NCBI RefSeq assembly: GCF_003334765.1
Contig: NZ_QOWT01000084.1
Strand: one strand, 5' to 3'
Source: Escherichia coli
GTDB taxonomy: Bacteria > Pseudomonadota > Gammaproteobacteria > Enterobacterales > Enterobacteriaceae
Length of the DNA: 1,168 bases
Part shown: positions 768-1,092 of the stretch, in pieces
Numbering within the stretch: position 1 is the first letter of the stretch
How the letters are laid out: each line of letters opens with the position of its first letter
Notes under the pieces: generated by a model
The model's database searches: none
What the model was told of the DNA's origin: nothing
What the model saw: only the letters and a program-made list of their open reading frames with translations
Translations under genes and position numbers: made by a program

Positions 768-1092
768 CAATATATTTTTCTTTAAACTCTATAATAAATT
801 GTGGCACAAATTTCTCTAAATAGCTATAACGAATACTGCTACATATCCGATAACATCAGTGATTATCTTCTTCCTGATTGCAAAAGAATCTGCCTCTAAC
901 CCATATATTTTATCTTACACAGCATCCTTAACAAAAGCTGTTATGATATAATTTACCATAAATATAATCTCATTTTGTCTAAGCTAGTATCCAGGATATT
1001 TGGGAGGAGACTTTGGATACCAGGACAGGAAAAGACTAGCAAATGTTGAGCATTCTCTGTAAGTGATGAAGATAAATAAAATTTTGGGAACA
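768..1092. other. AT-rich non-coding spacer between the int terminator and the IS1 end
   Basis: No ATG-initiated ORF of meaningful length on either strand (six-frame track is empty here; my manual scan found only ORFs of 17 codons or fewer). Hand count over 771-1090 gives about 221 A+T out of 320 (~69%), versus roughly balanced composition across most of the int coding region. Confidence 0.6.

Follow-up and report, generated by a model that had tools for sequence, protein, structure and literature searches.

The window, that is, the whole 1,168-nucleotide stretch of Escherichia coli DNA that was analyzed, opens within a tyrosine integrase gene (int). Present are the last 735 nt of that gene (positions 1 to 735, plus strand), ending with a TAA stop codon at 733-735, as seen both in the list of open reading frames and in the RefSeq annotation of 042, O104:H4, and E24377A. 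At full length int consists of 1263 nt and adjoins tRNA-Phe. It scores 251 bits against the NCBIfam integrase domain NF007246, which is under the cut-off of 434 bits.

Immediately following the stop codon is a bidirectional intrinsic terminator hairpin (736-763), with 12-bp perfect arms (736-747 and 752-763) enclosing a 4-nt loop. An A-run precedes this hairpin and a T-run follows it, i.e., there are T-runs on both strands. Folding yields -21.1 and -23.9 kcal/mol, with z = -6.7 and -7.5, for the two strands (minus-strand z = -7.5), and it is on the minus strand that the hairpin was called by a terminator scan. Together with what follows, the element at 736-775 has the makings of a Rho-independent terminator, that is, a G+C-rich stem-loop and then a T-run, found straight after a stop codon. 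The right-hand end of the window consists of the left end of an IS1A element (1093-1168, plus strand), including its left inverted repeat and the start of insA at 1148, the full element being 768 bp in length. I use here the term ‘spacer’ to describe the DNA lying between, positions 768 to 1092.

The original prediction had bounded the spacer by those same two positions. As coordinates these hold up, with a length of 325 bp and IS1A beginning at 1093. The left edge does not, however, as the terminator tail of int runs to approximately 786. That T-rich tail (764-786, plus strand) belongs to a conserved int 3' module and overlaps the first 19 bases of 768-1092. Integrases of this family are found in 4,122 genomes and, among the matches listed, homology to the window stops at 732, at 757/758, or at 783-786. 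A metagenome-assembled genome whose integrase is 98% identical has the int stop codon, shares the run ATATTTTTCTTT, and diverges only after about position 786. Bases 768-786 are in this sense the terminator tail of the int module and, with the whole of 764-786 included in that module, only roughly 787-1092 is left as a distinct unit. That same metagenome-assembled genome (positions 1760-1800 of its contig, versus 736-786 of the window) carries a hairpin in the identical position, with the identical T-rich run to its 3' side, but with another stem sequence (ATCCCGGGCTGCCAGCCCGGGAAT versus AAAATCCGGGCAATAGCCCGGATTTT). Terminator structure there is kept, that is, with the stem sequence having been replaced.

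The spacer is A+T rich, as it had been described, at 68.6% versus 51.7% for int (1-735), and it also is free of any plausible open reading frame, with the longest listed one that touches 768-1092 being 40 aa in length and reading into IS1. Neither property is in need of special explanation. Across all frames, 49 aa is the most that can be read without a stop codon, versus 50.6 +/- 12.4 over 2000 shuffles of the same composition, i.e., open reading frames are absent because composition alone predicts none. Base composition, in turn, is that of the surroundings, at 34.9% G+C for the ancestral form of the gap (described below) versus 35.5% for the island's other intergenic gap, as measured in the IS1-free form. 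Both the absence of open reading frames and the A+T content consequently are within what chance and context lead one to expect. RefSeq annotation, among all 51 carriers of the spacer, places nothing beneath it other than one 66-aa hypothetical protein, which is a product of the ISKpn26 junction that also is described below.

Those 51 carriers are from among 5,426 complete E. coli genomes, and in every case the spacer is chromosomal. Searches of plasmid and of phage collections, low-stringency blastn included, did not return it. Carriers include enteroaggregative E. coli (EAEC) 042, 55989, the O104:H4 outbreak lineage, ETEC E24377A, and UMNK88. In every examined carrier but one, int is found directly 3' of a tRNA-Phe gene, with the window representing the integrase end of a tRNA-Phe (pheV/pheU) genomic island. 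O104:H4 and E24377A have the island at pheV, on the speC-yqgA side, and 042 has it at pheU, on the dsbD-dicD side. Islands of the IS1-bearing type and islands of the ancestral type each occupy pheV in some strains and pheU in others, and do so with identical left ends, from which the same island type would appear to have made use of both tRNA-Phe genes. As described in PMC11537424, intP4 is the sole conserved gene of this island family, with IS elements separating the modules of a mosaic GI-pheV, and the typical intP4.5 GI-pheV is that of strain 55989, possessing helicase, pic, and T6SS. The idea that the spacer might contain an att or tRNA-derived repeat was rejected, as it holds no copy of the tRNA-Phe 3' end or of the attL region, and has in common with the tRNA-to-int segment only chance 7- to 9-mers.

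Outside of E. coli the spacer was not encountered in what was scanned. When 100,044 species genomes were scanned using the integrase as anchor, 80 loci were returned, all from other Enterobacterales and with integrases of 56-98% amino acid identity, and in 0 of these 80 was the spacer found by blastn or nhmmer. A 20-mer scan of metagenomes produced 10 matches, of which 5 do not align beyond the 20-mer itself, and the aligned copies are near-identical and of E. coli type. Available relatives of the spacer all are at least 97% identical, which is too little variation upon which to base a covariance model or a measurement of selection. The same caveat applies to the comparison with strain CH4784, against which the spacer is 97.5% and int 97.9% identical, i.e., there is no excess conservation of the spacer, at a divergence that is too low to discriminate.

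Two genomes, CH4784 (island at pheU) and Rb-50 (island at pheV), possess the spacer without IS1, at 97.2-97.5% identity to the window. In these genomes homology continues through 1092(-1094) and there then are 40 bp more, leading to the stop codon of a minus-strand gene. This convergent neighbor is annotated as ‘enolase C-terminal domain-like’ and is followed by SDR, MFS, and GntR genes. It most resembles the ManD/galactonate-type sugar-acid dehydratases, scoring 401 bits, under the equivalog cut-off of 550 bits. The ancestral state, as read from these two genomes, would be a 398-bp gap found between convergent int and ManD-like dehydratase genes, 3' of both. This is relevant to what had been thought of the locus, that is, that the spacer could be the promoter-proximal or 5' region of a gene whose body had been displaced by IS1. 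A neighboring gene indeed was displaced by IS1, but it is that neighbor's stop codon rather than its start which faces the spacer in CH4784 and Rb-50 and, as the spacer ancestrally lay 3' of both genes, a reading of it as promoter or 5' region of that displaced gene is ruled out. At homologous loci the spacer instead looks like any other intergenic DNA and has no conserved structure, which goes partway toward the very outcome that the original prediction had set against itself.

Nor does the spacer travel with either of its ancestral neighbors. The dehydratase operon also is found on plasmids, in six copies of 86% identity that share with the chromosomal form only 16 bp past the stop codon and that lack the spacer. 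With the spacer missing from these plasmid operons and also from all 80 of the integrase loci from elsewhere, positions 787-1092, approximately, would be lineage-specific, AT-rich, non-coding filler, ancestrally the mid-part of the 398-bp convergent gap, and putatively a part of neither the int module nor the dehydratase module.

The island of CH4784 has a further peculiarity. There the int-spacer-cassette block is about 6.8 kb long and directly after it comes another integrase, which lacks its N-terminus (L099 7083-7670), past which lies a different island (tia, leoABC, type I R-M, grp). This arrangement indicates probable tandem accretion, and the small sugar-acid cassette of CH4784 appears to be a separate mini-island that may have integrated in tandem at tRNA-Phe.

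The IS1A found in the remaining bulk of carriers is complete, as seen in 042 (L001 6358-7125), with terminal inverted repeats GGTGATGCTGCC on the left and GGAGTCATTACC on the right. Target-site duplication by IS1 normally is of 8 or 9 bp (PMC12428005). Here no such duplication is present, with the 9 nt to the left reading ttgggaaca and the 9 nt to the right ccctctctg. To the right of IS1 is the interior of a YagK/YfjJ-domain gene, beginning 150 nt into a 567-nt open reading frame, a gene which is found in about 1,445 genomes. The two flanks of IS1, that is, come from different, unrelated modules. What now sits to the right of IS1 is an IS1-truncated gene, with the dehydratase cassette that formerly was there having been lost. 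The spacer-IS1-YagK junction is identical in 42 genomes, at pheV and at pheU alike, which implies that the IS1 event is older than the spread of the island.

The right-hand module shows additional signs of wear. In 042 the YagK/YfjJ remnant (L001 7126-7514) lacks its first 150 nt, as a consequence of IS1, and also possesses a 1-nt frameshift, caused by the loss of one nucleotide from a run of C (GAGCCC-CCCC here, GAGCCCACCCC where the gene is intact). The distal part of this remnant is annotated by RefSeq as an 87-aa hypothetical protein. Approximately 500 bp to the right of IS1, also in 042 (L001 7600-7960), is the remnant of a ColE1-type plasmid origin. Rfam RNAI (RF00106) is recognized there at L001 7801-7906 (+), with 59.9 bits versus a gathering score of 47, and a 147-nt open reading frame within this remnant has been named ‘replication initiation protein’ by RefSeq. 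This suggests that a small ColE1-like plasmid may once have been captured by the island module.

A reading of the IS1 event as an internal deletion of an ancestral-type island found no support in CH4784, which does not possess the YagK/DUF2931/SNF2 block within 49 kb, and neither a second IS1 copy nor an intermediate was found there. IS1-mediated replicative deletions and large-scale deletions are topics of studies which appear, as titles, in the reference list of PMC12428005.

The junction subsequently was subject to additional events. In seven complete genomes (55989, UMNK88, H3, ETEC1749, HSP425, UPEC69, and OZ547038), along with two metagenome contigs (L091 1069-1075 and L090 12424-12428), IS1 is missing and a scar is found in its place, which in 55989 is at about 3341734-3341745 of NC_011748. 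The scar reads ...GGGAACAGG-TGATG-GCTGATTTT..., that is, spacer, then the first 2-7 nt of IS1, then YagK. It fits with 773 bp having been deleted between two copies of the pentamer TGATG, one from the IS1 left end and the other from the YagK flank, leaving behind GG(TGATG) of IS1. Seven native YagK bases (ccctctc) that the scar form lacks are still present where IS1 is, and the direction of change accordingly was from IS1-bearing to scar. That same difference led to rejection of the IS1-less metagenome contigs as representing the ancestral state. They also were rejected as assembly artefacts, the junction being common to the seven complete genomes. One of these contigs (L090) is 100% identical to 042 to the left of the scar and only 91% identical to its right. 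Carriers overall thereby are found in three junction states, namely IS1 present (42), scar (7), and ancestral (2), for a total of 51, with these states, their counts, and the junction sequences themselves all being direct observations.

A different insertion sequence has entered the spacer in strain DLI.5a, where the IS5-family element ISKpn26 is found at CTAG 984-987, flanked by a duplication of those 4 bp (L006 5217-6419). That the spacer might be a target of insertion sequences, as had been supposed for IS1, thus is borne out by two independent insertions within the 357-bp gap, i.e., IS1 at 1093 and ISKpn26 at 984-987. Two insertions in 51 genomes are suggestive of a possible hot spot, the number being small and short of a statistical demonstration. 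In this same strain the integrase is preceded by DUF6387, HTH, and H-NS-family genes rather than by tRNA-Phe, and with tRNA-Phe not preceding int this end of the island would be a rearranged or relocated one.

Positions 768-1092, in light of the above, very probably are without dedicated function, and represent passive junction DNA at the seam of int and cargo, where insertion sequences can land and be tolerated. The ancestral gap would have had on its left the int stop codon with a strong bidirectional terminator, and on its right the dehydratase stop codon, 40 bp past what is now the IS1 junction. Insertions into such a gap would strike no coding sequence and no promoter, and AT-rich DNA may both tolerate and attract insertion sequences, for which reasons the gap could have accumulated them. 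IS1 then would have inserted at 1093. Replacement of the dehydratase cassette could have followed, whether via recombination with a second IS1 copy or via IS1-mediated adjacent deletion, with the spacer thereby having become joined, through a single IS1 lacking a duplication, to the YagK/YfjJ interior of another island module. That incoming module would have consisted of the YagK remnant, the ColE1-ori remnant, DUF2931, and the SNF2 helicase. The composite island would next have spread to pheV and pheU sites, with IS1 afterwards presumably lost in seven genomes via the 773-bp deletion between TGATG pentamers. It is the order of these events, how IS1 came to be without its duplication, and the functional neutrality of the spacer DNA that we infer, the last of these from a lack of coding or structural signal that itself was directly observed.

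From a different perspective, the spacer could be the orphaned 3' UTR, or read-through tail, of the mRNA of the displaced dehydratase, running as far as the terminator at 763-736. This is possible, but on balance somewhat improbable. The hairpin that is found past the dehydratase stop codon has an 8-bp stem, possesses no U-tract, and was not called by the terminator scan, and the int hairpin, with z = -7.5, is the only canonical minus-strand terminator. The spacer furthermore accompanies this dehydratase gene in CH4784 and Rb-50, the only two IS1-free genomes. The plasmid operon copies (86% identity), with just 16 bp past the stop codon and no spacer, nevertheless imply that the spacer is no integral part of the dehydratase transcription unit. 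Rho-dependent termination, in addition, could stop dehydratase mRNA sooner, and the read-through reading describes a past state only, the dehydratase gene being gone from the window. As the hairpin belonging to the dehydratase is without a U-tract, transcription of the spacer from that gene is in any case compatible with viewing the spacer as a passive junction.

A region of H-NS nucleation or silencing, regulating int or adjacent cargo, is an unlikely role for the spacer, even if binding of H-NS to it is plausible from composition. An A+T content of 68.6% is of the kind favored by H-NS, the island came by horizontal acquisition, and the spacer is well above the genome average for A+T, as is H-NS-bound xenogeneic DNA. 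Yet in this property the spacer equals other intergenic DNA of the island. The high-affinity H-NS motif TCGATAAATT moreover shows no clear enrichment, with 3 matches to the window versus 1.6 expected and 47 of 200 shuffles reaching 3, and only two of those matches fall within the spacer or at its border. The spacer also lies 3' of int and, ancestrally, 3' of its other neighbor as well, such that no promoter would be there to silence.

That the spacer instead is a promoter or small non-coding RNA locus appears quite unlikely. In this case a putative extended -10 motif at 944-952 (plus strand), TGATATAAT, which is perfect but without a -35 and is the one positive signal in the spacer, would fire a plus-strand transcript from about 960. 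Horizontally acquired, AT-rich DNA holds many extended -10-type promoters, and this one is kept in all three variants of the spacer, being unaltered in CH4784 and Rb-50. Such retention is weightless, however, at 97% overall identity, and the motif is a single one, occurring once versus 0.10 times expected in the whole window, with at least one match in 19 of 200 window shuffles. There also is no terminator downstream of it within the spacer. A two-hexamer promoter scan placed no plus-strand sites in the spacer and 4 weak minus-strand sites, and over the whole window 5 sites versus the 3.0 +/- 1.7 that are expected.

Structure is no more supportive of a small RNA there. A small or structured RNA locus had been among the possibilities raised for the spacer, and this possibility was abandoned, as Rfam matched terminator look-alikes only and neither strand showed an excess of folding. 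With a permissive E-value employed for the window, and with the gathering threshold employed for both IS1-bearing and ancestral forms, no Rfam 15 family attained its gathering threshold in either the window or the ancestral form. The best sub-threshold matches, BSnc120 (39 versus 114 bits) and Leu_leader (34 versus 50 bits), aligned solely to the int hairpin. Folding of the whole spacer versus shuffles gave z = +0.69 (plus) and -0.72 (minus), i.e., no excess. Locally there is an imperfect inverted repeat (984-1023), with arms at 984-993 and 1014-1023, 20 nt apart, that are complementary at 9 of 10 positions. It folds with z = -3.4 on the minus strand and -1.2 on the plus strand. The pair 985/1022 nonetheless is T/A in the window and C/T in CH4784 and Rb-50, a double change that breaks the pairing and thus is non-compensatory, meaning that the hairpin is not maintained, although with relatives at least 97% identical this is a weak test of structure.

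Were the promoter to be real, then ancestrally its transcript would have opposed the final part of the dehydratase gene as an antisense RNA, and in the window would continue into the left end of IS1 and into insA. The more specific proposal that this extended -10 drives a lineage-specific non-coding RNA, one that ancestrally was cis-antisense to the 3' end of dehydratase mRNA and that now reads into the left end of IS1 and modulates insA expression or IS1 mobility, is very unlikely indeed. Least credible of all is that the spacer is a heavily decayed pseudogene, a rejected idea for which there is precedent in the abundance of gene fragments in such islands, as with the truncated and frameshifted YagK remnant to the right of IS1, but against which stand stop-free stretches not beyond chance, a best E of 0.12 for tblastn of the 16 stretches from six-frame translation against all fetched loci, zero matches by distant-mode blastn to plasmids, to phages, or elsewhere in E. 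coli DNA, and an ancestral region that has the 3' end of an intact gene on either side.

Viewed as a passive junction, the spacer matters little as new-element biology. Its value is instead as a small evolutionary record. The 357-bp gap, that is, would record four events, successive or independent, these being IS1 insertion, replacement of cargo through a duplication-less IS1, loss of IS1 through microhomology, and an independent insertion by an IS5-family element, all at the int-module/cargo seam of an island that is of clinical importance, being carried by EAEC 042, by 55989, and by the outbreak lineage O104:H4. The three junction states, as a consequence, are simple sequence markers for use in tracing the history of this island.

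Much of this has parallels among known systems. The junction is similar to the IS-bounded junctions of GI-pheV/pheU islands (intP4.5, 55989), where, per PMC11537424, a P4-type integrase by tRNA-Phe is the only conserved gene and where modules of cargo are separated and exchanged at insertion sequences, with 55989, 042, and O104:H4 as carriers. The consulted parts of PMC11537424 make no mention of the spacer, of the duplication-less IS1, of the IS1-free ancestral form, or of the scar of IS1 loss. In having both IS1 ends intact, mismatched flanking 9 nt, and flanks that come from unrelated modules, the locus is like IS1 rearrangements lacking duplication, with the putative mechanism here being read back from the end product. 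Loss of IS1 in the seven genomes resembles nearly precise IS excision by short-repeat slippage, i.e., a 773-bp deletion with ends in TGATG pentamers, but unlike in usual excision the repeats are a chance 5-mer rather than a target duplication, and seven flanking bases are lost as well. Lastly, with a symmetric hairpin following the int stop codon and an ancestral convergent neighbor, the region is like the gap that separates convergent genes sharing a bidirectional terminator, though in comparison with a usual convergent pair the gap is long (398 bp), with about 300 bp from terminator to stop codon that have no assignable role. In kind, the spacer is an ordinary non-coding island gap.
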